From assembly GCA_002449145.1 (NCBI GenBank), contig DKCG01000026.1:82608-146607 (forward strand): a stretch of 64,000 bases of DNA, read 5' to 3'. Source of the stretch: Christensenella sp. UBA6880 (GTDB lineage Bacteria; Bacillota; Clostridia; Christensenellales; CAG-917). The notes under the pieces are model-generated. The model did not search any database. It worked only from the letters and a program-made list of their open reading frames with translations, and had not been told where the DNA came from. Positions 5,925 through 54,411 of this stretch are shown one piece after another. The position numbers and the translations under genes are program-made. Numbering within the stretch: the stretch's first letter is position 1; the number at the start of each line of letters is the position of its first letter.

Positions 5925-5978
5925 TAATTAATAATTAATAATGAATAATTAATAATTGCGGGCGGGACACCCGCACCC
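5925..5978 (+). repeat. repeat module A, copy 1 (AT-rich all-frame-stop tract plus GC hairpin)
   Basis: The sequence AATTAATAATTAATAATGAATAATTAATAATTGCGGGCGGGACACCCGCACCC recurs at 34943-34997 and in shorter form at 53953-53983. Confidence 0.8.
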
Positions 5979-6002
5979 GAAACGAACACTCATTCGAAGC
6001 CT

Positions 6003-6530
6003 ACTTATACACGGAATGTGCAAATTCGCAGACGGAACACGAGCCGCAAGGCGGCGAGCCTATGAGCGCCGAACTTTCGTCACGCACAAGCCCTTTTGCT
6101 TCAACCGCAACAAGTTGTAGTTGTTCGCCTTTGTGCTTTGCGTTCCTCGTCCCACACGCCAAAAACTACGCTTTCATCATATTACTCAAACATAAGTTCG
6201 CTTGTTTTTGACGTGCGGGAACCCTTGTGCGTGTAGTACAAGCGACTGCGCCGTCTGTTGGCCACTGCCTGGCGCACAAAGCGCAGTGGCATAATGAGTG
6301 AAATGTCCCTATCTATGTGAGTGCCGTAAGGAACACAGTGACGGAATAGCGATTGTTACGAAGTCAATCGCGTCCTGCCCCCTCTTGCGAACGATGTAAA
6401 GTTTTGCAGAGAACTGGCGCAAGTTTGAGCAATAGGGGAAAGCCCGAAGGGAAGGGGTGACGTGTAATTTTAGAGTTCACGCCGTCAAACTTTTGTAGAG
6501 GAAGAACATTCCCCGTGAGGAAGGGGGAAG
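6003..6530 (+). repeat. repeat module T1, expanded copy (two nested insertions plus a tail ending in GTGAGGAAGGGGGAAG)
   Basis: Near-identical to 48915-49165 over the shared blocks, and interrupted at about 6078-6234 and 6326-6377. The tail at 6465-6530 ends with the T2-type purine terminus. Confidence 0.85.
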
Positions 6531-6619
6531 CTTTAATTTTATTTTTTTGCACTCGGCGCAAAGCAACAAAAAAACGCTCGCAAGTTTTGCTTGCGAGCGT
6601 TTCGATTTGTTTAATCAAA

Positions 6620-19885: not shown

Positions 19886-20858
19886 CCTCGGAAGCAAGTT
19901 TATCACCATCTATCAAAAGGGCATAGGTCTCGTTTTGCGCGAGCCTGCAATCGCCATTGCGACCAAATCGCGCAACCGTCTCGAAATCCGCGACGCGGGG
20001 TACAGAGCGGAAAGCGTTATGACGGGTTCGCTCGGCGGCGCAAGAGTCATCGCGCCCATCAAGGAAGGCATAATCGTAGACGAAGAAATGGCGACTATGC
20101 TTCTTCATTACTTCCTCAAAAAGATTATCCCCGAAGGCATTTTTATGCCTAGAATCAAAGCCATCGTGTCCATTTGCGAATCCTCGTCGGGTTCGGACAG
20201 ACGTGCGGTGGAAAAGTGCTGCATAAAGGCGGGCATAAAGGAAGTCACGCTCGTGGAATCGGGTTTGAGCCTTCTTGCCTACACCAACAGCATAGGCGGT
20301 CTTTTCGTTGACATCGGCGGCGGCAAAACCGAAATATCCGCAGTCACCAATCACGGCATTGCGACGGGTTGCTCGGTCAATATCGCAGGCGACGCGTTCA
20401 ACAACGCAATCATAGATAGCCTTTATATGAATTACGGCGTAAAGGTGGGCGAATTTACAATCGAGAATCTCAAAAAATCCGCGCTTTCTTTCTACGTCAA
20501 CGACGAGGGCAGTTACGCCGTCAGCGGCGGCAGTGCGGACGGTTCGCCTCGTTCGCTCTACGTCACCGCAGAGCAAATGCGCGACGCCGTGATTCCGCTT
20601 GTGGACGACATCATCGAAGTCATAATGTCCGTCCTCAACCAAACGCCGCCCGAACTTTCCGCAGAGATACTTCGAAAAGGCATTTTCGTATCCGGCGGCT
20701 CGCTTCACATTCCGGGACTTATCGACTATCTCGAACAAGCGCTTGAACTTCCCGTCACGCCGCTCAAAGACATCGAGAACGCGATTGCAATCGGCGGCGC
20801 GAGATTCTTCGACGAAAAGAATCTGCTGTCTGATATGTTGGGGGTCAAATTGTATTAA
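19860..20858 (+). CDS. mreB: MreB/Mbl-like actin-fold rod-shape protein (divergent)
   Basis: The pattern IDLGSKFITIYQKGIGLVLREP...IAPIKEGIIVDEEMATMLLHYF parallels MreB, and it follows maf as in many Firmicutes. Confidence 0.7.
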   Translation: MATIELSIDLGSKFITIYQKGIGLVLREPAIAIATKSRNRLEIRDAGYRAESVMTGSLGGARVIAPIKEGIIVDEEMATMLLHYFLKKIIPEGIFMPRIKAIVSICESSSGSDRRAVEKCCIKAGIKEVTLVESGLSLLAYTNSIGGLFVDIGGGKTEISAVTNHGIATGCSVNIAGDAFNNAIIDSLYMNYGVKVGEFTIENLKKSALSFYVNDEGSYAVSGGSADGSPRSLYVTAEQMRDAVIPLVDDIIEVIMSVLNQTPPELSAEILRKGIFVSGGSLHIPGLIDYLEQALELPVTPLKDIENAIAIGGARFFDEKNLLSDMLGVKLY

Positions 20859-20863
20859 AGCGC

Positions 20864-21068
20864 GCTATTTGGCGAATAACTTTGGACGCGATTGACGCAA
20901 GCGTAACAATCGCTATTCCGTCACTTCGTTCCTTACAACGCCCTTTTGTTCACCCGTCACGTACGATTTAGTACGTTGGGCGGGTTCGCAAAAGGGCGTT
21001 TCCTTGTTCTTCATCTCAATAGTGCGCTTTAATGCAATTTGATGTCACTCATTCAAGGCGTACTTATC
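20864..21068 (+). repeat. composite repeat locus: 17-mer, rc52 block, H-type long hairpin, TTCTTCATCTCAATA box and x-block
   Basis: 20864-20880 equals 48888-48904. 20884-20936 is the reverse complement of 6326-6375. Arms 20937-20948 and 20989-21000 form a 12-bp stem. 21044-21068 resembles 5988-6010. Confidence 0.8.
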
Positions 21069-24108: not shown

Positions 24109-26817
24109 ATGAAAAGATTTAGATTGTTGGTAGTGTTATCACTATGCATATTGATTTGTTGCATATTGTGTGCTTGCAGTCCTAGCGATTCCGATTATGA
24201 TGACAGTAGTGTACAAAAATATAGTGTAACTTGGAAAAACTACGACGGCACGGTTCTGGAAAAAGATAGTGAAGTGGTATATGGAACAGTACCCGAATAT
24301 AACGGCATAACACCGACCAAACCGTCGACGGAACGCTATTCATATGCCTTCAACGGTTGGACACCGACAATCGTTCCTGTTACGGAAGATGTTGTTTATA
24401 CAGCGCAATTTGCCGAAACTACGAACACATATAGCGTAATCTGGGAAAATTATGACGGCACAATTTTAGAAAAAGATAATGAAGTGGCGTACGGAGAAGT
24501 GCCCGAATATAACGGCATAACACCGACCAAGCCATCAACAGGGCGGTATTCATACTCGTTCAACGGTTGGACACCGACAATTGTTCCCGTTACAAAAAAT
24601 GTTGTTTATACGGCACAATTCAACGAATCGACAAATACATATAGTGTAATCTGGAAGAATTATGACGGTACAATTTTAGAAAAAGATAACGAAGTGGCGT
24701 ACGGGGAAGTGCCCGAATATAACGGCATAACACCGACCAAACCGTCGACGGAACGTTATTCTTATGCGTTCAACGGTTGGACTCCGACAATTGTTCCTGT
24801 TACGGAAGATGTCGTTTATACGGCGCAGTTCGCAGAAACGATAAATACATATAGCGTAATTTGGAAGAATTATGACGGCACGATATTAGAAACTGATAAT
24901 GAAGTAGAATATGGGCTAATGCCCGAATATAACGGTGCGATGCCGATTAAGGGCGATGACGATATTTTCCGATATTCATTTATTGGCTGGGATAAAGAGA
25001 TTGCTCCTGTTGTGTCTGATATAATATATATTGCTCAGTTTTCCAGTGCATATAAAGAAGATTTTATATTTGAAACGGTTGGCAACAAATGTTTTTTAAA
25101 GAAATATGTTGGGGTAAACGAAAGCGTCGTTATTCCAAGTACATATCAAAACCATCCGGTTGTTTCGATTTTGTCAAATGCATTTGACAAAAAAGCGTGT
25201 GTAAAATCATTATACGTTCCTACCAGCGTTATTGAAATTCAGAAAAATGCTTTGAGCGGTTGTACAAATATAGAGCGGTTGATTCTTCCTTTTGTAGGCG
25301 ACGGCGCAGATATAGGATTTATCGGATATGTATTTGGCGCTGCAAATTATGAAGAAAACGCACAATGCGTTCCTTATTCGCTGTCATCAATAAGAATATA
25401 CAATGCGAATATTATTGCAAGTAACGCATTTTACGGTTGCAAATATTTAGAATATGTGGAAATTTCGGACGATATTACAAGTATCGGTGATGGTTGTTTG
25501 GCAGGTTGCGCGTCTCTTTCTAAAATGCGCTTGCCATTTGTCGGCGAATCATATAATAGCAAGAATTCATTTGGATATATATTTGGAACAAATAATTATT
25601 CTAATTCTCAAATCGTTTCACAAAACGGACAAATATTTTATATTCCGAATAGCCTTTCAGAAGTTGAAATTACAGGTGGATGTATATTGACAGGAGCGTT
25701 TGAAAATTGTGCTATGATTCAAAAAATAAGCATTGAACAAGGTGTTTCTATAATCGAGGAAGAATCCTTTGCAAATTGCAATTCGCTAAGAGAGATTTAT
25801 GTCGATTCGGCTGTGGAAATAAAAGCGTATGCATTTGCCAAATTGTGCAACCTTGAAAAAATAAAAGTGCCTATTCAGGATTATTCGTATAGCGATTCAG
25901 AATATTTGTGGACGTTATATCACATAGGTAGAATGTTTAATAAGGAAGAATATGGCGGATGCGATGCTATTACACAATCAAGTAAAGGAAAAGGAATAGG
26001 CAGTAATGCAGGCGTAGGTTCCGGCGGCGGAGGAACTTATTATATACCGACATCGTTAAAAGAAATTGTTGTAGATTGTAAAAACGATATTTTGGGTTAT
26101 GGGGCGTTAAGCGGTATTGCAAACGTTGAATTTGTTATTAACAATTGCACGGGCATCGCAGAGTATTCGTTGTCTCGAACGAGCATCAAAACATTTATCA
26201 TTCCGAAAGGATTGACAGAAATTCCAGAAGGCGCATTCAGTGAATGCGAGTTGTTGGAAAGTATAGTCATTCCTTATGGAGTGACTACAATACAAAATAA
26301 CGCTTTTAGGGGATGTATTTCATTGAAAACAATTGTTGTCCCTAAAACGTTATCAGGAATAGGTGAGCTAAGTTTTAGTGGTTGTAAATCGTTAGAAAAT
26401 ATAGATTTTATCAGAAACTGCGCAGAAGAATTTGTTATCGGAAGAAATGCATTTATTGAATGTACTGGGTTAAAAAAGTTGATTATTCCGAGCAATGTTT
26501 GTTCGATATATTATGGTGCTTTTGGCAACTGTTCGGAAATAAGCTCTGTTACTTTTGAGGACGGTTCAACTTGCGCATATATCGGCGGAGCTGCTTTTCA
26601 CGATTGTACAAAACTTGAATATGTAGTTATTCCTTCAAGTGCATTGACATTGGGAGAAAGTGTGTTTTCTGGTGACACATCATTAATTATATATGCAGAA
26701 TTTAATGAAAAACCATCAAGATGGGGTAATTATTGGAATAAGGATAACAATGCGGTTTATTGGTTATCAGAATGGAAATACGACGAATCGGGTTTTCCTT
26801 GTCCCAATAATGATTAG
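24109..26817 (+). CDS. surface lipoprotein with four 70-aa Listeria-Bacteroides-type B repeats and BspA-type leucine-rich repeats
   Basis: Lipobox LCAC-S. Repeats have the form YSVxWxNYDGTxLE...NGWTP...VYTAQF. LRR_5-like units such as IPxGVTTIQNNAFRGCISLKTIVVP follow. Confidence 0.8.
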   Translation: MKRFRLLVVLSLCILICCILCACSPSDSDYDDSSVQKYSVTWKNYDGTVLEKDSEVVYGTVPEYNGITPTKPSTERYSYAFNGWTPTIVPVTEDVVYTAQFAETTNTYSVIWENYDGTILEKDNEVAYGEVPEYNGITPTKPSTGRYSYSFNGWTPTIVPVTKNVVYTAQFNESTNTYSVIWKNYDGTILEKDNEVAYGEVPEYNGITPTKPSTERYSYAFNGWTPTIVPVTEDVVYTAQFAETINTYSVIWKNYDGTILETDNEVEYGLMPEYNGAMPIKGDDDIFRYSFIGWDKEIAPVVSDIIYIAQFSSAYKEDFIFETVGNKCFLKKYVGVNESVVIPSTYQNHPVVSILSNAFDKKACVKSLYVPTSVIEIQKNALSGCTNIERLILPFVGDGADIGFIGYVFGAANYEENAQCVPYSLSSIRIYNANIIASNAFYGCKYLEYVEISDDITSIGDGCLAGCASLSKMRLPFVGESYNSKNSFGYIFGTNNYSNSQIVSQNGQIFYIPNSLSEVEITGGCILTGAFENCAMIQKISIEQGVSIIEEESFANCNSLREIYVDSAVEIKAYAFAKLCNLEKIKVPIQDYSYSDSEYLWTLYHIGRMFNKEEYGGCDAITQSSKGKGIGSNAGVGSGGGGTYYIPTSLKEIVVDCKNDILGYGALSGIANVEFVINNCTGIAEYSLSRTSIKTFIIPKGLTEIPEGAFSECELLESIVIPYGVTTIQNNAFRGCISLKTIVVPKTLSGIGELSFSGCKSLENIDFIRNCAEEFVIGRNAFIECTGLKKLIIPSNVCSIYYGAFGNCSEISSVTFEDGSTCAYIGGAAFHDCTKLEYVVIPSSALTLGESVFSGDTSLIIYAEFNEKPSRWGNYWNKDNNAVYWLSEWKYDESGFPCPNND
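24220..25059 (+). repeat. in-frame 210-bp tandem repeat x4 inside the lipoprotein gene
   Basis: Units lie at 24220, 24430, 24640 and 24850. Units 1 and 3 are nearly identical at the protein level, and unit 4 has diverged. Confidence 0.85.
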
Positions 26818-27030: not shown

Positions 27031-27975
27031 ATGAAATACGTTGGCATTGACATCGGCGGTATGACCATAAAGGGCGGTATCGTTGACGAAAAGGGCAATA
27101 TCCTTGCAAGAAAAGTCGTCGTTACGTCCCCCGGTAAAGAGGATTATCTCATCGTGCAAGACATCGCAAACCTCATCGAGGATTTGACGAAAGACTGCAA
27201 AGACGAAATCGAGGGCATCGGCATAGGTTGCCCCGGTTCTATTTACGACGAAAAAGGCATCGTGCGCTATGCGTGCAACATCAATTTCCGCAACACCCCT
27301 ATGGCGAAAATGATTGCCGAAAAAACGCAGATTAAAAACGTAAAACTTTCAAACGACGCAAACTGCGCCGCACTCGGCGAAACGCTTTTCGGCGCGGGCG
27401 AGGGCGCGAAAAATTCCGTTATGGTTACGCTCGGCACGGGCGTAGGCACGGGCATAATCGCCGACGGCAGACTTATCACGGGCAATCGCTCGGCAGGTGC
27501 GGAAGGCGGACATATAACGATAAATCTCGGCGGCGCGACTTGCGGTTGCGGAAAGAAAGGTTGTTTCGAGGCGTACGCTTCGGCAACCGCGCTTATGAAT
27601 CAAATTCAATCCGCTTGCGAAAAGCACCCCGACAGTTTGCTTGCAAAAGAAGTCGAGGAAAACGGCAACAGCGGCAAAATCGTGTTTGATTGTGCAAAAG
27701 AAGGGGATAAAGTGGCGATTGCGGTTGTCAAACGCTACATCAAGTACGTCGGCATAGGTCTTGTCAACTACGCCAACATCTTTGCGCCCGAAGTCATAAT
27801 CATCGGCGGCGGAATCTCGAATCAAGGCGACAACATCATCAAGCCTTTGCAAAGATACGTTTCGAGAAACAAGTACGGCGCGGAATATACGCCCAAAGTC
27901 AAGGTCGTTGCGGCAACTCTCAAAAACGACGCAGGTATAATCGGGGCGGCCGCGCTGTGCATAAACCGTTGCTAA
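27031..27975 (+). CDS. glcK: ROK-family glucokinase
   Basis: IGIDIGGMTIKGG N-terminus, and the ROK zinc motif GGHITINLGGATCGCGKKGCFE. Confidence 0.85.
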   Translation: MKYVGIDIGGMTIKGGIVDEKGNILARKVVVTSPGKEDYLIVQDIANLIEDLTKDCKDEIEGIGIGCPGSIYDEKGIVRYACNINFRNTPMAKMIAEKTQIKNVKLSNDANCAALGETLFGAGEGAKNSVMVTLGTGVGTGIIADGRLITGNRSAGAEGGHITINLGGATCGCGKKGCFEAYASATALMNQIQSACEKHPDSLLAKEVEENGNSGKIVFDCAKEGDKVAIAVVKRYIKYVGIGLVNYANIFAPEVIIIGGGISNQGDNIIKPLQRYVSRNKYGAEYTPKVKVVAATLKNDAGIIGAAALCINRC

Positions 27976-28028
27976 GGCAACGGCAACACGCAAGCGTGCG
28001 TATTGCCGAGAGCCTTGCTAGGTTTCTG

Positions 28029-28264
28029 CACTACTAACCGCGCAAGCCCTCTTTACTCTCAAAATAAGACGGACAAAAACTCAAACCGCAATTCCGTGCG
28101 AGTGCTTGCTTGGTGGGTGCGCACTTCGTGCGCAAGCGGTAAATTTGAACGGCGGTTGGGCGCGACGCGTCAAACAATACATTCGGTGAATGTGTTGTAG
28201 CCAAAGCGAACGAGGCGGATTGCCTCGCAAACGCCGAAGTCCAAACACGTGAGGAAAGGGGAAG
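28029..28264 (+). repeat. repeat module T2, copy 1
   Basis: Aligns with 37726-37958 and 54056-54292. The 3' ~125 nt are nearly identical, and it ends GTGAGGAAAGGGGAAG. Confidence 0.85.
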
Positions 28265-28302
28265 CTTTTCTTAAAAAATATACAAACTACAACGATACGA
28301 AA

Positions 28303-33300: not shown

Positions 33301-33426
33301 GCAATTATATTTGCCAAATAAGCAAAATCCGCAAAAAAAAAGCGGCGTTTTGCAAAAAAAAGAAGGAAAAGCCTTTTGGCGGTGCGGCTTAGAGTTTGAA
33401 ATTCGCTCTTTGCGCACAAATATTTG

Positions 33427-34965
33427 ATGAGAGAAGATTCAACAAAACTTAAACGCGCATTTTCCTTTGCGCAAGAGGGTATACGCAAATTTGCGTACAC
33501 CGATTTGTATATTTTGCTCGTTCTTGCAATAGTCGTGGCGGCGTGGATTTGGCAAAACGCAACGTTCGGTTTTGTCACGCTCATTCTCGTATCGTGTGCC
33601 GTTTTGGTGTTCTCGGACGATATTTTGCCGCTTTCGGTCAACGCTTTCGGCGCAATGCTTATGATTTTCAAAGCCGATGGCGAAGGTGCTATTGACATAA
33701 GCAGATTCTTTTATCTTTGGCCGACATTCATTCCGCTTGCCGTCGCAATTTTGATTTTCGTGGTCAGAAACACCGTCGCAAAAGTCAAAAACAAGCAGCG
33801 TTTCGTGCTCGGAAAGATGTTCTTTCCGCAAGTCGCGGTCAGCGCCGCGCTCTTGCTCGGCGGCGTGGGAACTATCGCGGCAAAGAATTATCTCACCGCG
33901 CTTCCCAACGTCATTGCGCTCGGCGTAGGCGTGCTTGCCGTGTATCTGCTCTTTGCAAACTTCATAAAAATCGACGAAAAAAGAGACTATGCAAAGTACT
34001 TTGCAAAGGTCGTTATGTGGATAGGCTTTGCCGTGTGCGTCGAAATGATTGTGCATATATCCCGCCTCGACATCAGTTCGCAAGACTGGTCTAAATGGTA
34101 CTGGGATTTAGGGTGGGGCAACCGCAACAATATCGCAACGTTCCTGCTCTTTTCCGCGCCTATGGCGATGTATTTGTCGACGAGGACGAGAAAAGGCTGG
34201 GCATACATCGTTATGGCGTTGTTCCAATACGCTTGCCTCGTTATGACCTTGTCGAGAGGCGGCATACTGTTCGGCGCGATTGCGGCGGTATTCGGCGTAG
34301 TTTTCTCGATTTTGAAAGCACCCAACCGCAAAACGCAAGCAACGATATGGGGCGTTGCAATCCTTGCCGCGCTTGTGATTTGCCTCGTAAAACTCGACCT
34401 CGTCAAAGGCATTATTTCGAGCCTTGCTGACAGAATAGACGCAGGCGGAAACGGCGACGTAACGTCGGGCAGATTCGCTCTTTACAAAGAGGCGTGGGAA
34501 CAGTTCGTAAAGCACCCGATTTTCGGCGCGGGTATGGGCTTTATCGGCACTCGCGACGGTCAGTTCCATTCGGAAAATATGAGCCAGTACTGGTTCCACT
34601 CGACGCTTTTCCAAGTGCTCGGCTGTATGGGTATCGTCGGTATAGCCGCTTACGTTTACTACTACGTCGTCCGCTTCGGAATCGTGTTCAAGGGTATGAA
34701 AAAGAATTGCAAATTCGCCTTTTTCGTGTTCGTTGCGTGGCTTGGATTCGAGGGCTATTCTATGATAGACACCGGTACTATGATTCCGTTCCCGAATATG
34801 ATGTTGGTTGCGGTTATGTCCTATATAGCGCAACTTGCCAACTTGCAAAGAAGCGAGAGCGAAATCGACGGCGTTCCGAACTCTCTACTCAACGAGGTAT
34901 ACGTGCGAGATACCGGAATCGACGTAGTGAGAGTTGATGCTAAATTAATAATTAATAATGAATAA
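33427..34965 (+). CDS. O-antigen ligase/polymerase (Wzy_C) family membrane protein
   Basis: Polytopic protein. The LSRGGILFGAIAA loop region and the periplasmic-type loop with FHSENMSQYWFHS are typical of this family. The last codons lie inside repeat module A. Confidence 0.75.
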   Translation: MREDSTKLKRAFSFAQEGIRKFAYTDLYILLVLAIVVAAWIWQNATFGFVTLILVSCAVLVFSDDILPLSVNAFGAMLMIFKADGEGAIDISRFFYLWPTFIPLAVAILIFVVRNTVAKVKNKQRFVLGKMFFPQVAVSAALLLGGVGTIAAKNYLTALPNVIALGVGVLAVYLLFANFIKIDEKRDYAKYFAKVVMWIGFAVCVEMIVHISRLDISSQDWSKWYWDLGWGNRNNIATFLLFSAPMAMYLSTRTRKGWAYIVMALFQYACLVMTLSRGGILFGAIAAVFGVVFSILKAPNRKTQATIWGVAILAALVICLVKLDLVKGIISSLADRIDAGGNGDVTSGRFALYKEAWEQFVKHPIFGAGMGFIGTRDGQFHSENMSQYWFHSTLFQVLGCMGIVGIAAYVYYYVVRFGIVFKGMKKNCKFAFFVFVAWLGFEGYSMIDTGTMIPFPNMMLVAVMSYIAQLANLQRSESEIDGVPNSLLNEVYVRDTGIDVVRVDAKLIINNE

Positions 34966-34997
34966 TTAATAATTGCGGGTGGGGTAAACCCCACACC
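34943..34997 (+). repeat. repeat module A, copy 2
   Basis: The sequence is AATTAATAATTAATAATGAATAATTAATAATTGCGGGTGGGGTAAACCCCACACC. It supplies the C-terminal ...LIINNE and the stop of the upstream CDS. Confidence 0.8.
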
Positions 34998-36069: not shown

Positions 36070-37677
36070 ATGAAAGACAAAAAGACGGAAAAAAGAGGCA
36101 TATTTTCGGGTTTACGCAAAGAGTTTTGCGCTTCCGATACGAAAAAGCACGACGAGGCGAGCCTCGCCGAGTTGCTTTGCGAGCACGACAAAAACAAAAT
36201 CGTGCCTTTTCATATGCCGGGGCATAAACGCGAGGATTTCGATTTTCTAAACGGCGCGCAAAAAATCGACATAACCGAGATAGAGGGCTTCGACAATCTC
36301 AACGACGCAAACGGAATCATATTGCAATCCGAAAAACTTGCGGCAGAGGTGTTCGGCGCAAAGCACGCAAGATTTTTGGTGAACGGAAGCACGGGCGGCG
36401 TTCTGGCGGCGATTCGTACGGTTTGCAATGCGGGCGACAAGGTTTTGATTGCTCGCAACTGTCATAAGTCCGTGTACAATGCGGTGGAAGTGTTCGGCTT
36501 GGTTCCCGTCTACGTTATGCCGTCCTATTTCGAGGAATACGGCTTTTACGGCTCGGTTTTCCCTTGTGACGTAAAAAGAGCGTTCGAGCAAAATCCCGAC
36601 ATAAAACTCGTGGTGATAACTTCGCCCACGTACGAGGGAATCGTCAGCGACGTAAAATCAATCGCGGATATATGCCGCAAAAACGGCGCGATTTTGTTCG
36701 TCGACGAGGCGCACGGCGCACATACCGGACTTTACAAAAAGTTCGGCGAAAGCGCGAGAAGTCTCGGCGCGGACATGGTTGTGAACAGTTTGCACAAGAC
36801 GTTGCCGTCGCTTACGCAAACCGCGCTTTTGTGCGTTTGCTCGGATAGAGTGGACACAACCGAACTCGACCGCAATCTTGCGATATTCCAAACCAGTTCG
36901 CCCTCGTACGTCCTTATGGCTTCCATCGACGGTTGCGTGAGAATGCTCAAAAACGACGGCGCGAAATTGCTGTCCGAGTGGAACAAGAATATCGACGATT
37001 GCAAAAAGTCGCTTGAAAGACTAAACAAACTTTCGATTTTCCAACCGAAAAAAGATTCGCGAGTTTTTGCCTACGACAAGTCGAAATTCGTCGTGCTATG
37101 CACGGGCGGCGCAATAAGCGGCATTGAACTCAAAAAGGTTTTGCGAAACGCATACGACATAGAACTCGAAATGGCAAGCGTAAACTACGCAATCGCAATG
37201 AGCGGCGCAGGGGATACCAAAGAGAATTTTTCCGCCCTCGAAAGCGCGTTGTTTGCAATCGACGACACGCTTGCTTCACGCAACGGTTTGACTACGACGG
37301 TTTTGCCGTCATTGCCGAAAAAGGCGTTTGAACCCTATCAAACACGCACTTTAAGTGGCGAATACGTCGATTTCGACAAATCGTCGGGCAGAGTAAGTCT
37401 TGAAAACGTATGGGTATATCCGCCCGGCTCGCCCGTCATCGTCAAAGGCGAAGAAGTGTGTCAGGAAGATATAAAAAATCTTACTTTGATGTACGAAAGC
37501 GGCGTAAGCGTATCGAGCGAAAAGCGAGAATTTCCGACATACCTTTATGTCGCAAAAGCCTGTAACGAAGACGGAACACGAGCCGCAACGGCGGCGAGCC
37601 ATTGCTCAAACAGCGTTGCGGCAAAGTCAATCGCCCAAGTCGTCATTCCGAGCGAAGCGTGGGAATCCCCTAAATAG
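36070..37677 (+). CDS. PLP-dependent Orn/Lys/Arg decarboxylase family protein, with the last ~36 aa encoded by repeat DNA
   Basis: FHMPGHK and SLHKTLPS (PLP-Lys) motifs. From about nt 37569 onward the frame runs through the T1-type repeat sequence. Confidence 0.8.
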   Translation: MKDKKTEKRGIFSGLRKEFCASDTKKHDEASLAELLCEHDKNKIVPFHMPGHKREDFDFLNGAQKIDITEIEGFDNLNDANGIILQSEKLAAEVFGAKHARFLVNGSTGGVLAAIRTVCNAGDKVLIARNCHKSVYNAVEVFGLVPVYVMPSYFEEYGFYGSVFPCDVKRAFEQNPDIKLVVITSPTYEGIVSDVKSIADICRKNGAILFVDEAHGAHTGLYKKFGESARSLGADMVVNSLHKTLPSLTQTALLCVCSDRVDTTELDRNLAIFQTSSPSYVLMASIDGCVRMLKNDGAKLLSEWNKNIDDCKKSLERLNKLSIFQPKKDSRVFAYDKSKFVVLCTGGAISGIELKKVLRNAYDIELEMASVNYAIAMSGAGDTKENFSALESALFAIDDTLASRNGLTTTVLPSLPKKAFEPYQTRTLSGEYVDFDKSSGRVSLENVWVYPPGSPVIVKGEEVCQEDIKNLTLMYESGVSVSSEKREFPTYLYVAKACNEDGTRAATAASHCSNSVAAKSIAQVVIPSEAWESPK

Positions 37678-37958
37678 AAACGAAAACTTTTTGGCGATTG
37701 ATAACAACCGCACTTGTTTTCGCAAGCACTAACCGCGCAGAGAATTTGAGCTATCAGTTCAAGCACGGATAAGAACTCAAACCGCAATTTCGCCAAATTA
37801 TCTGCTTGGTGCAGCGCACTTCGTGCGAAAGCGGTAAATTTGAACGGCGGTAGGGCGCGACGCGTTAAACAACACATCCAGTGAATGTGTTGTAGCCAAA
37901 GCGAACGAGGCGGATTGCCTTGCAAACGCCGAAGTCCAAACACGTGAGGAAGGGGGAA
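37569..37958 (+). repeat. composite repeat: T1 5' fragment, hairpin block (GTCATTCCGAGCGAAGCGTGGGAATC) and T2 copy 2 (37726-37958)
   Basis: 37570-37600 matches the T1 5' block, and 37726-37958 aligns with the other T2 copies. Confidence 0.85.
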
Positions 37959-37971
37959 ATGTGTTAAGTTC

Positions 37972-38000
37972 TTGACAAAGCCGATACAAAACAATATAAT
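37972..38000 (+). promoter_or_regulatory. candidate promoter of the SCIFF operon
   Basis: TTGACA (37972-37977), a 17-nt spacer, then TATAAT (37995-38000). GAAGGAG is the SD before the ATG at 38031. Confidence 0.6.
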
Positions 38001-38030: not shown

Positions 38031-38177
38031 ATGAAAAGAATCACAACTTTGAAAACACGCGATCTCAACGAGAGCAAAAAGAACGGCGGCTGTGGCGAAT
38101 GCCAAACCTCTTGCCAATCTGCTTGCAAAACTTCCTGCGGCGTTGCAAACCAAAAGTGCGAAAAGGCTGCAAAGTAA
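38031..38177 (+). CDS. SCIFF (six-cysteine) ranthipeptide precursor, 48 aa
   Basis: MKRITTLKTRDLNESKKNGGCGECQTSCQSACKTSCGVANQKCEKAAK. It is not in the ORF track because it is shorter than 60 aa. It has a strong SD and lies directly upstream of the maturase. Confidence 0.9.
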   Translation: MKRITTLKTRDLNESKKNGGCGECQTSCQSACKTSCGVANQKCEKAAK

Positions 38178-38302: not shown

Positions 38303-39682
38303 ATGATTCATTCTTTCAAACTTAACGGATACAATATCGTGCTCGATACGGCAAGCGGAAGCGTGCATAGCGTGGACGACGTAGCGTACGACGTCATAAA
38401 CTCGTACGAGGACAAAAGCAAAGAGCAAATCGTCAAAGACGTGGTTGCAAAGTACGAAAACCAAGGCGTTTGCGAGCAGGACGTAATCGAGTGCATAGAC
38501 GATGTAGAGGAATTGAAGGCGCAAGGCAAACTCTTTTCCGAAGACACGTTCAAGCCCGACGTCGACGTTCTTGCAAAACGCAATACCGTGCTTAAAGCGA
38601 TGTGCTTGCACGTTGCGCACACTTGCAACCTCAACTGCGAATATTGTTTCGCATCGCAAGGCAAATATCACGGCGAGCGCGCGCTTATGTCGTACGAAGT
38701 GGGCAAACGCGCTCTCGATTTCCTCGTCGAAAACAGCGGAACGCGCCGCAATCTCGAAGTGGACTTCTTCGGCGGCGAACCGCTTATGAACTGGCAGGTT
38801 GTCAAAGACCTCGTGGCATACGCTCGTTCGATAGAGAAAGAGCACGGCAAAAACTTCCGCTTTACGCTCACGACCAACGGTATGCTCGTTGACGACGACG
38901 TAATCGAATTTGCCAACAAGGAAATGGACAACGTCGTTTTGTCTCTCGACGGCAGAAAAGAGATAAACGACCATTTCAGACACACCATAGGCGGCGTGGG
39001 AAGTTACGATATAATCGTGCCGAAATTCCAAAAATTCGTCAAAGCGAGAGGCGGAAAAAACTACTATATGCGCGGCACGTTTACGCACAGAAATCCCGAC
39101 TTCACGAAGGATATTCAAACTATGCTCGACCTCGGCTTCGACGAGTTGAGTATGGAACCCGTCGTATGTCCGCCCACCGACAAGTACGCGCTCGACGAGG
39201 ACGACAAAAAGGTCATCTTCAAAGAGTACGAAAAACTTGCCGATATGATGATTGAAAGAAGAAAGCAGGGCAAACCCTTCACGTTCTATCACTATATGCT
39301 CAACCTCGAAGGCGGTCCGTGCATATACAAGCGTATATCTGGCTGCGGAAGCGGCACGGAATATCTCGCCGTAACGCCCACCGGCGAACTCTATCCTTGC
39401 CATCAGTTCGTCGGCAACAAAGAGTATCTTATGGGCGATATATGGAAGGGCGTCACGAACACGGAAATTCAATCCAAGTTCAAAAAGTGCAACGCATATT
39501 CGAGAAAAGAGTGCGACGAGTGCTGGGCAAGGCTGTATTGCTCGGGCGGTTGCGCGGCGAACGCATACAACGCCACGGGCGACGTGAACGGCGTTTACAA
39601 GTACGGTTGCGACCTTTTCAAAAAGCGTATCGAATGTGCGATAATGCTCAAAGTGGACGAGCAACTCGGTGAGGAAGAATAA
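38303..39682 (+). CDS. SCIFF radical SAM/SPASM thioether-forming maturase
   Basis: CNLNCEYCF radical-SAM motif and C-terminal SPASM cysteines (CDECWARLYCSGGCAANA). It is adjacent to the SCIFF precursor. Confidence 0.9.
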   Translation: MIHSFKLNGYNIVLDTASGSVHSVDDVAYDVINSYEDKSKEQIVKDVVAKYENQGVCEQDVIECIDDVEELKAQGKLFSEDTFKPDVDVLAKRNTVLKAMCLHVAHTCNLNCEYCFASQGKYHGERALMSYEVGKRALDFLVENSGTRRNLEVDFFGGEPLMNWQVVKDLVAYARSIEKEHGKNFRFTLTTNGMLVDDDVIEFANKEMDNVVLSLDGRKEINDHFRHTIGGVGSYDIIVPKFQKFVKARGGKNYYMRGTFTHRNPDFTKDIQTMLDLGFDELSMEPVVCPPTDKYALDEDDKKVIFKEYEKLADMMIERRKQGKPFTFYHYMLNLEGGPCIYKRISGCGSGTEYLAVTPTGELYPCHQFVGNKEYLMGDIWKGVTNTEIQSKFKKCNAYSRKECDECWARLYCSGGCAANAYNATGDVNGVYKYGCDLFKKRIECAIMLKVDEQLGEEE

Positions 39683-43297: not shown

Positions 43298-43310
43298 GCA
43301 AAACTGTGAA

Positions 43311-43570
43311 ACTTATAAACGGAATGTGCTAATTCGCAGACGGAACGCGAGCCGCAAGGCGGCGAGGAAGCGAGCGTCGAGCTTGACGGATAGTACAAGT
43401 GAACGGGCGAGTGTGGATTTTTTCGCCCGTGAACGAGTGGCATAACAAGAGAACGATACTTTTCTATGCGAGCACCGAGTGTTGCCCCACGCAGAGCGGA
43501 CGCCGTGGGTTCCCTCAAAGTATGCAGAGGGGGAACGGCGGTAGGGGAAACACGTGAGGAAGGGGGAAAG
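43311..43570 (+). repeat. repeat module T1, diverged copy ending in the T2-type terminus
   Basis: It shares ACTTATAAACGGAATGTGC..GCAGACGGAAC.CGAGCCGCAAGGCGGCGAG and GAGAACGATACTTTTCTATG with the other T1 copies, and ends CACGTGAGGAAGGGGGAAAG. Confidence 0.8.
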
Positions 43571-43614
43571 TTCAAATTCAAGTATCTTATTAAAGTAAAG
43601 GAATAGCGTATAAA

Positions 43615-46086: not shown

Positions 46087-48903
46087 ATGAGTATCGACAA
46101 AATTTACATCAAAGGCGCGAGGGAAAACAACCTCAAAAACATCGACCTAGAAATACCGCGCGACAAACTCGTCGTGTTCACGGGATTGAGCGGAAGCGGC
46201 AAATCGTCGCTTGCGTTCGACACCATTTTTGCGGAAGGACAAAGACGTTACGTCGAAAGCCTTTCCAGTTACGCGCGTATGTTCCTCGGTCAAATGCAAA
46301 AACCCGACGTGGACTACATCGAAGGTCTTTCCCCCGCCGTTTCAATCGACCAAAAAACGACCTCGCACAACCCTCGCTCGACCGTGGGTACGGTGACGGA
46401 AATTTACGACTATTTTCGCTTGCTGTTTGCAAGAATCGGCACGCCGCATTGCCCCAAGTGCGGACGTGAAATCGAACGTCAAACGGTTGACCAAATCTGC
46501 GACAAGATTATGGAAAGAGAGGGCTCAAAACTTCAACTTCTCGCACCCGTCGTGAGAGGTAGAAAGGGCGAGTACCGCAAGGAACTCGAACAATTCAAGC
46601 GCGCGGGCTACGTCCGCGTAAGGGTGGACGGGGTGAACTACACCCTCGACGAGGAAATAAAACTCGACAAAAACGTCAAGCACAACATAAGCGTGGTTAT
46701 CGACAGAATCGTGGTTAAGGACGGTTCGCAACGCCGCATATCCGATGCAATCGAAAACGCGATAAAACTGTCCGAAGGGCTTGTGATTGCCGACTTCGAC
46801 GGCGAAGAAGTGCTTTATTCCACGAAGTACGCTTGCCCCGATTGCGATTTGAGTTTCGAGGAACTCACGCCGAGGTTGTTCTCGTTCAACAATCCGTACG
46901 GCGCGTGTCCCGAATGCGGCGGACTCGGATTCCGCAACGAAATCGACGTAAATCTGCTCGTCACCGACTGGAACAAATCCCTCAGAGAGGGCGCGATAAA
47001 GGTAAGCGGCTGGGACGCGGGACATATGTCGCAAATGCAGTTCAGGGCGCTTTCGCAAGCGTACGGATTTTCTCTCGATACGCCGATTAAAGACTTGCCG
47101 CAAAATATCCTCGACATCATCTTTTACGGCAACGACGGCGACCGTATTCCTATGGAATACAACTCGCGCACGTTCAGTGGTTTCTACAAGGCGAGTTACG
47201 AGGGCGTTGCGAGAAACCTTATGCGCCGATTCAACGAAACGGACAGCGAACTCATAAAGAACGAGATTTCCAAGTATATGAAAGAAGTGCCTTGCTCCAA
47301 GTGCGGCGGAAAGAGGCTCAAACCCGAAGCCCTCGCAGTCACGATTGCGGGCAAGAATATATACGAACTCACCGAGATGTCCATATCGAAACTCAAAGAC
47401 TTTATGCAGTCTCTTACGCTCACCGACACGCAACATCTTATTGCGGACAGAATTATCAAAGAGATTTGCGCAAGGCTCGACTTTTTGATTAACGTAGGAC
47501 TGGATTATCTAACTCTTTCGCGTTCGGCAACCACTTTGAGCGGCGGCGAGTCGCAACGAATCCGCCTTGCAACCCAAATCGGAAGCGGACTTACGGGCGT
47601 TTTGTACATTCTCGACGAGCCGAGCATAGGCTTGCACCAAAAGGATAATCAACGCCTTTTGCAATCCCTCAAAAATTTGCGCGATATAGGCAACACTCTC
47701 ATCGTCGTCGAACACGACGAGGAAACCATACGCAGTGCGGATTATATCGTCGATATAGGCCCGGGCGCGGGCGTACACGGCGGCAACGTCGTTGCGCGCG
47801 GTAGCGTCGAGGACGTCATAAAGAGCAAGGACAGCATAACGGGCAAGTATCTGAGCGGCGAACTCTCGATACCCGTTCCCATTGCAAGACGCTCGTCAAA
47901 CGGCAAGTCAATCGTCATAAAGGGCGCAAGACAAAACAACCTCAAAAACGTTGACGTCGAGATTCCGCTCGGCGTATTCAACTGCGTAACGGGCGTGTCG
48001 GGCAGCGGCAAATCCTCGCTCGTCAACGAAGTGCTTTATCCCGCGCTTTCAAACGCGCTTATGCGCTCGAACGTCAAACAAGGCAACTACGACAGTATCG
48101 AGGGCATCGAAAACGTGGACAAGGTCATTTGCATAGACCAAAGCCCGATAGGCAAAACGCCTCGCTCGAACCCCGCAACGTATACGGGCGTTTTCGGCGA
48201 TATTAGGGAACTGTTCGCAACCCTTCCCGATTCCAAAGCGAGAGGCTACACCGCGGGCAGATTTTCCTTCAACGTCAACGGCGGCAGATGCGAGCATTGC
48301 GGCGGCGACGGCATAATCAAAATCGAAATGCACTTCCTTCCCGACGTGTACGTTCCTTGCGAAGTCTGCAAGGGTGCAAGATACAACCGCGAAACCCTCG
48401 AAGTGCGCTACAAAGGCAAAAATATCAGCGACGTGCTCGATATGACAATCGAGGAAGCCACCGAGTTCTTTGCCAACATACCCAAAATCAAAAACAAAAT
48501 CAAAACCCTCAACGACGTCGGTCTCGGCTACGTCAAACTCGGTCAGTCCTCAACCACTTTGAGCGGCGGCGAAGCGCAACGCGTCAAACTCGCAACCGAA
48601 CTTTCTCGCCGTTCCACCGGCAAAACCGTCTATATCCTCGACGAACCGACGACCGGACTTCACACCCACGACGTTGCCAAACTCATCACCATTCTCGACC
48701 GTCTCGTCGAGCAAGGCAACACCGTCGTCGTTATCGAGCATAATCTCGACGTCGTCAAAGTTGCCGACAACATCATCGACCTCGGACCCGACGGCGGCGA
48801 CCGCGGCGGAACGATAGTCGCGCAAGGAACACCGGAAGAGGTTGCACTTGTGGCTCGTTCATACACCGGTCAATTCCTTAAAACCGTGCTATTTGGCGAA
48901 TAA
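46087..48903 (+). CDS. uvrA: excinuclease ABC subunit A
   Basis: [23 protein letters not shown], two ABC modules ([16 protein letters not shown]) and zinc-finger cysteines. Confidence 0.95.
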
Positions 48904-49165
48904 CTGCGTCAATAAATGTGCGTATTAGCAGACGGAACACGAGCCGCAAGGCGGCGAGCCTATGAGCGCCGAACTTGACGGACAGTACAAGCGACTGCGC
49001 CGTCTGTTGGCCACTGCCTGGCGCACAAAGCGCAGTGGCATAATGAGAGAACGATACTTTTCTATGTGAGTGCCGACTTCCCCTCTTGCGAACGATGTGC
49101 AATATTGTAGAAAATTGGCGTAGGTTTGAGCAATAGGGGAAAGCCCGAAGGGAAGGGGTGATGTG
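48888..49165 (+). repeat. 17-mer left block (48888-48904, containing the uvrA stop) plus compact repeat module T1 (48915-49165)
   Basis: GCTATTTGGCGAATAAC is identical to 20864-20880. The T1 body is near-identical to the shared blocks of 6003-6464. Confidence 0.85.
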
Positions 49166-49229
49166 TTTTTTTTGGGTACACGATGAACACTCGTGTATAA
49201 AAAGAAACGAATATGAAGAGGGTAACTCT

Positions 49230-50069
49230 ATGATAAAACTTGTAGACTTCTTGAATATCGAAGATTGCGACTTGGCAAAGTATAAAATCCATTTCGCTAT
49301 CGGAACAAAAGATAAAAACGAACCCTATCAAATCTTCTTGACGGGCGGTTTCGACGAGTGGCAAAGCATACAAACCAACAAGAATTTCAATTTGGATTAT
49401 GTCGTTTCTCTCGTCTATTACAAGAAAAATATTTGGATGTTTGCGGGCGTATTCAAAGTAAACGGCGAACCGTGCGAAATAGAGTATAAAGGCAAGCGAC
49501 ATTGGAAGTATGCTTTGGAAAAAACCGACGTTCAAAGCGATATGATAGGCAAGTGCTTTTTCGAGTACAAGAAAGAATTTCGCGCGTCCTATCCGACAAT
49601 GACGTTAAAGCCGAAAAACGGCGCAGCGTTGAGCGATATTCAAATTGCTTTTATAAACGAAAAGCGCGCGACGATAAACGATTTCGACGGTTTCGACAAA
49701 ATCAATATTCCGTATTCGACATTAAAATATATCGTTGACAACAACTTGCCGTCTTGGAAAACCGCTCTTTCAAACGTGAAAGGCGTGTACATAATCGTCG
49801 ATACCAAAAACGGAAAACAATATGTCGGAAGCGCATACGGCAACGAGTGCATTTGGCAACGCTGGCAAGCGTATGCAAAAACGGGACACGGCGGAAACGC
49901 CGAACTGAAAAAGATTCTCGAACAGCACGGCGAGGATTACAAAAACAATTTCAAATATTCGATTTTGGAAGTGTGCAACTTAAATCTCGGCAACGATTAC
50001 GTCATAGCGCGAGAGTCGTACTGGAAAGAAGTTTTGATGACAAGAGAGTACGGATTAAACAAAAACTAA
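49230..50069 (+). CDS. GIY-YIG nuclease-domain protein with an uncharacterised ~190-aa N-terminal domain
   Basis: The C-terminal KGVYIIVDTKNGKQYVGSAYG...RWQAY...NFKYSILEV...RESYWKEVL fits GIY-YIG (GIY, YIG, Arg, Glu positions). GAAGAGGG is the SD before the ATG at 49230. The gene is visibly AT-rich. Confidence 0.75.
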   Translation: MIKLVDFLNIEDCDLAKYKIHFAIGTKDKNEPYQIFLTGGFDEWQSIQTNKNFNLDYVVSLVYYKKNIWMFAGVFKVNGEPCEIEYKGKRHWKYALEKTDVQSDMIGKCFFEYKKEFRASYPTMTLKPKNGAALSDIQIAFINEKRATINDFDGFDKINIPYSTLKYIVDNNLPSWKTALSNVKGVYIIVDTKNGKQYVGSAYGNECIWQRWQAYAKTGHGGNAELKKILEQHGEDYKNNFKYSILEVCNLNLGNDYVIARESYWKEVLMTREYGLNKN

Positions 50070-53952: not shown

Positions 53953-54292
53953 AATTAATAATTAATAATTTAGGGCGGGGCACAAGCAAAAATCATCGCA
54001 GAGGTGATGACAATGCACATAAATGTGAATTGTCAAAACCTCGCTTGATTTATTGCTCTACTAACCGCGCAGAGAATTTGTGCTATCAATTCAAGTACGG
54101 ATAAAAACTCACGCCACAATTTCGCCAAATTATCTGCTTGGTAAAAGCGTGCTATGCACGCAAGCGGTAAATTTGAACGGCGGTTGGGCGCGACGCGTTA
54201 AACAACACATTCGGTGAATGTGTTGTAGCCAAAGCGAACGAGGCGGATTGCCTCGCAAACGCCGAAGTCCAAACACGTGAGGAAGGGGGAAG
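53953..54292 (+). repeat. repeat module A (short copy, 53953-53983), spacer, and repeat module T2 copy 3 (54056-54292)
   Basis: AATTAATAATTAATAATTTAGGGCGGGGCAC, then a T2 body aligning with 28029-28264 and 37726-37958. Confidence 0.85.
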
Positions 54293-54411
54293 TTTTATTT
54301 AAGATTTTAGTTAGAATGCAAACTTTAAGGCAAAGATATAAGACTTTACAAATATTTATAAAAATGTTAATATATAATATCATAAAATAATTGTGGGCGC
54401 GCGTTGCGCAT

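Follow-up and report, generated by a model that had tools for sequence, protein, structure and literature searches.

A stretch of 64,000 nucleotides from Christensenella sp. UBA6880 (contig DKCG01000026.1, positions 82,608 to 146,607 of the forward strand; hereafter the window) carries copies of a repeat, T1, together with a second repeat, T2. Our analysis indicates that T1 is probably a variant of a lineage-specific, non-coding, non-autonomous and recombining family of mobile mosaic repeats, here termed T elements, in which the folded strand is under selection and which are probably transcribed from the 3' ends of genes. T elements are non-coding and modular, fold in a strand-specific manner, and are rapidly gained, lost and swapped in the short spacers that separate a stop codon from the promoter after it. 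In kind, the family is best filed as an unusually elaborate variant of bacterial interspersed mosaic repeats. Loci and assemblies of relatives used for comparison are denoted by L-numbers (L017, L041 and so on).

Distribution and diversity of T1

In a self-BLAST of the window, the compact copy T1c (48915-49182) matched 6015-6076 (95% identity, E = 4e-23) and 6235-6481 (72% over 247 nt including an insert, E = 1e-41) in the extended copy T1a, 43323-43478 (76%, E = 8e-25) in the copy T1b, and 37569-37600 (97%, E = 2e-8), and an nhmmer search with a 68-copy profile found T1 at four places in the window and at no others. An earlier note on this DNA, made from the sequence alone, had listed these copies, all on the + strand, and had described extra blocks in the copy at 6003-6464. 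Each copy that it named was recovered by both searches, self-BLAST placed all T1 copies on the + strand, and the extra sequence resolved into two discrete blocks, one of 158 nt (6077-6234) standing in place of the 7 nt GACGGAC and one of 48 nt (6327-6374) with an inverted counterpart at 20884-20936.

Retrieval beyond the window used an exact 27-nt pattern, ACGGAACNCGAGCCGCN{3,4}GCGGCGAG, with one genome per species. T1 was present in at least 109 stretches from 19 species-level assemblies of uncultured gut Clostridia, including UMGS1042, UMGS1043, UMGS1170, UMGS1331, CAG:238 and a complete 1.65-Mb 'Christensenella sp.' metagenome-assembled genome (MAG), although a few of these bins are evidently misnamed. 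Copies therefore exist outside the window, with at least 136 nhmmer matches in the 109 loci and the window, 68 of them with a full core. Several genomes hold at least 9-12 T1 loci. Many copies lie at contig ends, so T elements probably break short-read assemblies, and their masking would be advisable for annotators of MAGs. Within a single genome, mean identity between copies is 73.5% (range 49-99%). For 33 of the 68 copies the nearest relative belongs to another species, so that the family is old and diverse rather than a recent burst.

Rfam 15 gave no match at the gathering threshold over the whole window, and searches at E<=10 on T1c, T1a and T2a (a T2 copy) returned only noise or a neighbouring terminator; a known RNA family is ruled out on this basis. 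Phage, plasmid and viral-contig collections held no match to T1, so an origin from such elements is rejected, and literature word searches returned nothing relevant on T elements. Of the known sequences that the earlier note had named as possible sources, neither an Rfam intron nor a phage was matched. As far as Rfam, phages, plasmids and word searches of the literature reach, T1 is uncatalogued.

Modular anatomy

Alignment of 68 cores with 140 nt of upstream sequence shows an invariant start block, ACGGAAC-GAGCC-GCAA-GGCGGCGAG, preceded in most copies by a head of about 48 nt before ACGGAAC (CACTyATTCGAAGnnTACTTATwAACGGAATGTGCnnATTCGmAG). The 5' block described earlier begins at AATGTGC, but the true 5' end of the family lies further upstream, with this head. 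Some copies lack the 36-nt head loop, their two ATTCGAAG repeats being merged. Past the start block follow helices H1-H5, the strings AGTGGCATAA and TCTATGyGAGyrCCGA, and then a 3' domain that exists in at least three versions: the commonest, the T1b type, ends ..GGGGAAACACGTGAGGAAGGGGGAA about 215 nt past ACGGAAC, the T1c type ends GAAGGGAAGGGGTGA, and a third ends GGAAAGAGGGGG. The terminus is often followed by a tail unit of about 68 nt (..TTGCATTTAGAGT-hairpin-ACTCTTGTAGAGGAAGAAC), which may be repeated in tandem. Recurring upstream modules comprise the A-module (an AT-rich run plus a GC hairpin), the 5' half of T2, a palindrome (T3) and a CCGTCCGC..GCGGAC hairpin unit. From this limited set, T elements are assembled in varied combinations, with either a T1 multi-helix body or a T2 body and a purine-rich terminus, GTGAGGAAGGGGGAA or GAAGGGAAGGGGTGA.

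Members of the family are mosaics built from interchangeable modules and do not derive by deletion from one master. The single longest 'parental' form anticipated in the earlier note did not emerge: no T element contains an open reading frame (ORF), and none exceeds about 570 nt. Single-nucleotide indels in the most conserved stretch of the 68 aligned cores (GCAA versus GCAAC) exclude a coding function for T1. The 8-kb loci around at least 136 copies contained no recurrent ORF beside the copies and no adjacent transposase, and among the 109 loci listed there were neither ORFs starting at the terminus nor T starts without a nearby terminus; an autonomous, ORF-bearing parent was rejected after these three scans. 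The idea that the terminus represents the Shine-Dalgarno sequence and start codon of a lost ORF is not supported.

T1 and T2 as variants of one family

The earlier note had suggested a single larger element of which T1 and T2 would be parts or variants. Hybrids, nesting, allelic replacement and a common terminus back this idea, and the sequence comparisons support the view that both are variants of one modular family. In self-BLAST, the T2 copies (28013-28274, 37728-37959 and 54039-54302) share only a terminus of about 22 nt with T1. As had been stated, GAAGGGAAGGGGTGA ends T1c and T1a (49147-49161 and 6446-6460), and the T2-type terminus GTGAGGAAGGGGGAA ends both the copy at 43311 (43554-43568) and the extended tail of T1a at 6465-6530 (6515-6529); GTGAGGAAGGGGGAA also ends the three T2 copies (28249, 37944 and 54277).

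The supposed 5' fragment at 37566-37600 is a T1 start block (GACGGAAC..GGCGAGCC) joined through about 130 nt to the T2 copy T2b. In L041, the locus orthologous to that of T1a contains the same T1-start/T2 hybrid behind an A-module and a T1 head. The T2 5' half is fused directly to a T1 head at L017, L028, L037, L075 and other loci, and in L055 a T2 3' module is nested within the T1 3' domain. In the spacer between the ROK-family kinase and radical SAM genes, the window and L062 carry T2, and L039 carries T1 with identical junctions, its left junction (..GCACGCAAGCGG) and right end (GTGAGGAAGGGGGAAG/CTCTTCTTAAAAAATATAC, the slash marking the boundary) both being as in the T2 carriers; L079 and L085 have only an A-module there, and L018 has nothing.

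Gain, loss and exchange at orthologous sites

The gene downstream of T1b was located on 23 contigs by its exact protein sequence. Of the ten places compared, only L111, which agrees with the window, has T1b, and the other nine carry an A-module and a head stump instead. At the T1c locus the flanks are identical; the window and L120 have the compact form, and L122, L123 and L125 have the 158-nt block of T1a where the compact form has GACGGAC. L019 contains T1a without either extra block. T1a and T1c have the same sequence at the block borders, so the simplest explanation is gene conversion between copies, and the exchange of internal blocks via common sequence blocks looks like gene conversion in its pattern. 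These within-species block swaps offer a natural system for gene conversion among dispersed repeats.

Similar variability is seen in other spacers. Between the mreB-like gene and minD, L069 and L018 contain a full T1 and L039 none; the window retains only a 22-nt head stump on the + strand, CACTCATTCAAGGCGTACTTAT (21045-21068). The spacer between the decarboxylase and SCIFF genes is 100 nt long and empty in more distant relatives. L133 and L136 have a full T1 there in antisense orientation, L132 has a pair of antisense T2-5' units, and the window has a sense T1-start/T2 hybrid; since the relatives differ in both content and orientation, independent gains are the simplest reading. Three breakpoints cluster in the head at TA/CTTAT/ (21068, 43310 and the L110 stump; slashes mark the breaks), with heterogeneous upstream contexts. 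Five orthologous-site comparisons revealed replacements and deletions only, with no duplicated flank, and the 5' end (CACTCATTCGAAGC.. or ACGGAAC..) is not complementary to the 3' end (..GTGAGGAAGGGGGAA).

A conserved fold on one strand

The fold was assessed on an alignment of 28 full T1b-type copies from 14 assemblies and the window. RNAalifold predicted 46 pairs in ten helices, with compensatory double changes in 12 pairs. In these copies, which are related to each other and were retrieved with a fixed pattern, canonical pairing reached 95.9%, compared with 37-54% when partners were slid by 1-3 columns, and double-change cells numbered 78, compared with 27 +/- 6 after shuffling, with none of 500 shuffles reaching the observed values. 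For the variable hairpin H5, at least four unrelated sequences are found, with matching arms in each. Overall, the helices are upheld by compensatory and G.U-type changes even though the copies are only about 70% identical, and the asymmetry of wobble pairs (114 G.U versus 16 A.C) indicates that the fold belongs to the strand as written. Folding of single sequences is uninformative alone, as z reaches only -1.8 for T1c and -2.4 for T1b.

RNAalifold analysis, as suggested in the earlier note, thus returned covariation-supported helices on one strand, yet these differ from the pairings proposed there. Among the latter, GCCGC/GCGGC is compatible with the family fold, in which RNAalifold favours GCC-GCAA-GGC followed by GGCG/CGCC, but it never varies in 68 copies and carries no information, because the retrieval pattern fixed those bases. 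The pairing CAGACGG/CCGTCTG is formed in only 69% of cells and is a subfamily feature, and GCCACTGC/GCAGTGGC is confined to one subfamily; neither is conserved. Two further candidates were discarded: a head hairpin, CAC-TC-ATTC/GAAT-GTG, shows no covariation by eye and some copies lack the 36-nt head loop, and a hammerhead-like CUGANGA in a terminus variant reads GUGAGGA in most copies, the Rfam ribozyme models being silent.

An alternative is that T1 and T2 are multi-copy genes for functional structured RNAs, such as a trans-acting small RNA, a ribonucleoprotein scaffold, a guide-like RNA or a ribozyme, with mobility and mosaicism being secondary. Compensated helices at about 70% identity, invariant junction nucleotides and a GCAA tetraloop are what such genes would show, as are variable-length domains inserted in hairpin loops, similar to RNase P or introns, and a strand-specific fold for which Rfam has no matching family; T1a, which is antisense to its neighbours, even has promoter-like and terminator-like signals of its own. 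However, single copies are dispensable, being present, absent or swapped within one species, either orientation occurs at one spacer, truncated stumps are numerous, T1b and T1c are devoid of promoter-like or terminator-like signals, and no conserved partner gene lies nearby, nor does any guide-like segment track the flanks. We consider this explanation unlikely as the primary account of the family.

Position relative to genes

T elements often start within a few nucleotides of the upstream stop codon or over it. Of 110 upstream genes, 78 run in the same direction as the element and 32 in the opposite one (p = 1.4e-5); for downstream genes the corresponding numbers are 44 and 43 (n = 87). Promoter-like boxes of the next gene lie past the element, as with TTGACA-17-TATAAT at 37968-37996. 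Genes that follow T elements are unrelated to one another and include the uvrB operon, a gene for a GIY-YIG protein, a radical SAM enzyme gene, SCIFF and holA.

These positions bear on the notion that T1 is a cis-regulatory leader, that is, a riboswitch or attenuator of the downstream gene. At five of the six sites in the window, structured RNA does precede a + strand gene, and alternative pairing is conceivable between G-rich and C-rich segments close to the 3' end. The unrelated downstream genes, co-orientation in only 44 of 87, promoters past the element, polymorphism of copies within species, and the orientation of T1a, which faces away from both neighbours, leave such a leader barely credible, and it was rejected on gene content and orientation. 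A link between T1 and the GIY-YIG nuclease was rejected as well, as tblastn finds this gene at no other T1 locus.

Over 119 copies, the sense strand is G-rich in 62 and C-rich in 57 by local GC skew. Orientation is therefore independent of skew, and the uniformly + strand copies of the window reflect gene orientation rather than a replication rule. This result also bears on a third explanation, in which T elements are non-autonomous derivatives of a single-stranded DNA transposon, either a PATE of IS200/IS605 type with an omega-RNA-like scaffold or an element cut by an HUH/RAYT enzyme, the enzyme being encoded elsewhere and recognizing hairpins. Consistent with it are the absence of inverted terminal repeats and target duplication, the strand-specific fold, the conserved 3' terminus, the clustering of the three breakpoints at TA/CTTAT/ and the location of all six window copies on the leading, G-rich strand. 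Nevertheless, besides the even split of orientations, no match was obtained even at E<=10 to the HEARO and IS605-orfB RNA models of Rfam, no ORF of TnpA or TnpB size adjoins any of the at least 136 copies, no fixed short target is apparent before the 5' end, and the conserved part is a multi-helix core of about 200 nt rather than two subterminal hairpins. A derivation of this kind is accordingly quite improbable.

The junctions have consequences for the adjacent genes, as T elements rewrite stop codons and C-termini. The Orn/Lys/Arg decarboxylase at 36070-37677 has 535 aa, compared with 494-497 aa in relatives; its TAA stop (..GCAAAAGTATAA in L136) was lost at the element junction, and 38 codons are read into the T1 start and the segment preceding T2. 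The ROK-family kinase gene (27031-27975) is extended by three codons relative to the ortholog in L018, with the stop codon region (27962-27975) in the loop of the hairpin that opens T2a, and the stop of uvrA is likewise supplied by repeat sequence. T elements also separate genes from promoters and may supply terminators. A-modules, consisting of tandem AATTAATAATT motifs with stop codons in all frames and then a GC hairpin (GGGCGGG..CCCGCACCC), are placed at or over stop codons, and a 513-aa ORF (33424-34965) terminates within one.

Signals of transcription were scanned in the three T1 copies. T1a has a promoter-like match, TTAATA-17-AATAAT (5928-5956), in its A-module and a terminator-like hairpin with a T-run built from its terminus, and the same scan found no promoter-like signal in T1b or T1c. 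The view of the A-module as a dedicated promoter for T RNA is weakened by solo A-modules at gene 3' ends, for example at 34943-34995, ahead of a normal terminator. A role of the A-module as a terminator was also rejected, since, relative to the genes in question, its T-run lies on the wrong side.

Proposed mechanism and standing of the mosaic-repeat interpretation

If T elements are mobile mosaic repeats, selection would act on the folded sense strand. Most elements would be transcribed by read-through as a 3' extension of the upstream gene, for which the 78:32 sense bias is an indirect basis, and some copies may be transcribed from their own A-module and end at their own terminus hairpin and U-run. 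The resulting RNA could function as a structural module at the 3' end, influencing stability, processing or termination; alternatively, it could be the substrate recognized by a trans-acting enzyme for spread. The insertion machinery is not encoded next to the copies.

Several points weigh against this interpretation. Neither terminal inverted repeats nor a target-site duplication nor a clean empty/filled pair was found, on which grounds a miniature inverted-repeat transposable element was rejected. The polymorphisms seen are all replacements or deletions and so do not demonstrate true transposition. Exact-pattern retrieval and the full-length filter enrich intact copies and force invariance of the start block, and the orientation statistics rest on crude gene calls (longest ORFs). 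The role as RNA is presumed, and single-stranded DNA would tolerate G.T pairs too. A terminator-like end was found for T1a only, the scan giving none for T1b or T1c. Finally, invariant unpaired junctions, a GNRA loop and helices kept at about 70% identity exceed what is usual for REP or BOX repeats, and fit a functional RNA at least as well.

A bolder and, in our view, doubtful proposal is that the T core (about 200 nt, with the invariant ACGGAAC junction, GNRA loop and compensating helices) is a previously undescribed mobile structured RNA that drives its own insertion at gene ends, being itself a ribozyme or the substrate or guide of a trans-acting reverse transcriptase or recombinase. If true, this would represent a bacterial system resembling SINEs or retrozymes, or an RNA-guided mobile element with orphan RNAs. 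If the more conservative mosaic-repeat reading is right, T elements constitute an unusually elaborate new repeat family that shapes gene ends in widespread uncultured Clostridia of human and animal guts. The compensated fold at about 70% identity, invariant junctions and lack of an Rfam match also make the family a concrete candidate for a new class of structured RNA.

Comparison with known systems

The bacterial interspersed mosaic elements (BIMEs) and REP mosaics reportedly described by Gilson, Bachellier and Hofnung resemble T elements in being multi-copy intergenic mosaics of recurring motifs, located mostly after genes and folding into hairpin units. BIMEs lie mostly inside transcription units. 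REP units are palindromes of about 35 nt with a GTAG/CTAC head, are tied to a RAYT gene and often form inverted pairs, whereas T1 has a non-palindromic multi-helix core of about 200 nt with invariant junctions and no sequence similarity to them. The BOX elements of Streptococcus pneumoniae, said to have been described by Martin in 1992 and Croucher in 2011, are likewise modular and non-coding, occur in a Firmicute, have a predicted RNA fold and encode no transposase. They consist of boxA, a variable number of boxB and boxC, in about 100 or more copies; their modules of about 45-60 nt form one long hairpin, in contrast to the alternative bodies, nested modules, tail units and complex fold of T elements.

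In Neisseria, the NIMEs (with dRS3) and Correia elements, reportedly treated by Parkhill in 2000, provide another parallel, as NIMEs are cassette-like segments between short conserved repeats that are swapped at the same locus near gene ends. However, dRS3 is a 20-nt inverted repeat used by a phage integrase, and Correia elements are bounded by inverted terminal repeats and show a TA duplication, none of which is present in T elements. Repeats of the bcr1 type in the Bacillus cereus group, reportedly studied by Okstad, Tourasse and Kolsto, are about 150 nt long and transcribed. They are also lineage-specific interspersed Firmicute repeats with predicted structure that vary between strains, but they are MITE-like with a TTTAT target duplication, a signature not seen in T1. 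By behaviour, these four kinds of repeat come nearest to T elements.

Among larger structured elements, HEARO and the omega-RNAs of IscB/TnpB, which mobile elements carry, as well as PATEs, share with T elements a multi-copy, structured form of about 200-300 nt without inverted repeats, and orphan HEARO/omega-RNA copies without a protein gene are known. T elements differ in having no Rfam match, no neighbouring IscB/TnpB, no flank-derived guide and no replication-strand bias. Class C group II introns are mobile RNAs that are likewise structured and located just after genes; they also follow terminators, usually in the sense orientation. T1, at about 250 nt compared with about 700 nt or more, lacks domain V/VI and the GUGYG..AY ends, and the Rfam intron models are silent.

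T elements and associated modules in the window

T1c (48915..49186, +), delimited by self-BLAST, profile search and helix mapping, has its start block (ACGGAAC..GGCGAG) at 48932-48958. Its helices are H1 (48938-48940/49035-49037), H2 with the GCAA loop (48943-48945/48950-48952), H3 (48953-48956/48967-48970), H4 (48976-48979/48985-48989) and H5 (48996-49002/49019-49025), all on the + strand, followed by the 3' domain hairpin (49077-49088/49129-49140), a small hairpin (49142-49145/49155-49158) and the variant terminus GAAGGGAAGGGGTGA, after which T8 and a partial tail extend to about 49186. A 5'-arm fragment of T3, GTGCTATTTGGCGAATAACT (48885..48905, +), abuts T1c and gives uvrA its last codons and TAA stop. 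The gene 44 nt past T1c (49230-50069) encodes a protein of 279 aa whose C-terminal part is a GIY-YIG nuclease domain and whose N-terminal part is without assignment, and the region beyond it varies between strains, with HTH genes in L120 and L122.

T1a (5987..6548, +) is antisense to both neighbouring genes. It comprises a head (5987-6030), a start block (6032-6058) and a core to 6326, in which the optional 158-nt block is an extension of helix H4, and then the 48-nt mini-insert, a 3' domain (6375-6464), a tail unit (6465-6507) and a terminator-like hairpin, TTCCCC/GGGGGA (6509-6528), which contains the T2-type terminus, with a T-run to 6548. The A-module before it (5926..5986, +) consists of an AATTAATAATT run (5926-5957), a GC hairpin (5958-5979) and the linker AAACGAA; A-modules in the window lie at 5926-5979, 34943-34995 and 53953-53985. 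The mini-insert is a mini-element of 48-52 nt (GTAAGGAAC..GCGATTG..CAATCGC..GTC, with a 7-bp hairpin) inserted in T1a (6327-6374, +) and, inverted, in T3 (20884-20936, -); the orthologs of these copies in L019 and L069 lack it, and T1 copies of other species (L020, L034, L055) contain it.

T1b (43310..43592, +) represents the commonest architecture of the family, with a truncated head from 43310, a start block at 43340-43366, the terminus at 43554-43568 and a tail stump to 43592; ten helices were mapped, for example 43346-43348/43437-43439 and 43501-43506/43535-43540. The hybrid T2b is a single 394-nt element (37566..37959, +) composed of the T1 start block (37566-37600), a pre-T2 segment (37601-37727), the T2 body (37728-37943) and the terminus (37944-37958). 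A small hairpin unit resembling a REP mini-module, GTCATTCCGAGCG.AGCGTGGGAATC, lies at 37642-37668; this unit and its reverse complement occur in both orientations inside or beside T elements (L033, L055, L095, L096). T2a (27966..28265, +) has a short pre-T2 segment, begins within the last codons of the ROK gene and ends with the terminus at 28249-28263, and T2c (54039..54292, +), with its terminus at 54277-54291, is preceded by an A-module-like run at 53953-53985. T3 is a long imperfect palindrome of about 185 nt (20858-21042, +) with outer arms AAGCGCGCTATTTGG / CTCAATAGTGCGCTT and an inner hairpin around CACGTAC..GTACGTTGGG; its fold has -77 kcal/mol (z = -7.8), and it is found back-to-back with T1 heads at many loci.

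Other features of the window

The SCIFF gene (38031-38177; 48 aa with six Cys, Pfam SCIFF for the identical protein) and its radical SAM maturase (38303-39682) are preceded by the perfect TTGACA-17-TATAAT promoter at 37968-37996, and many gut assemblies share an identical SCIFF peptide (191 blocks of the collection). Three tandem 210-nt repeats (24219-24935, 84% identical) encode a repeated 70-aa domain in a 902-aa ORF (24109-26817). On the - strand, a 1459-aa ORF (6620-10999) had no Pfam match at E<=0.001, contains an internal repeat of about 69 nt (6928-6996 and 7774-7842) and ends at a strong bidirectional terminator (6571-6603).

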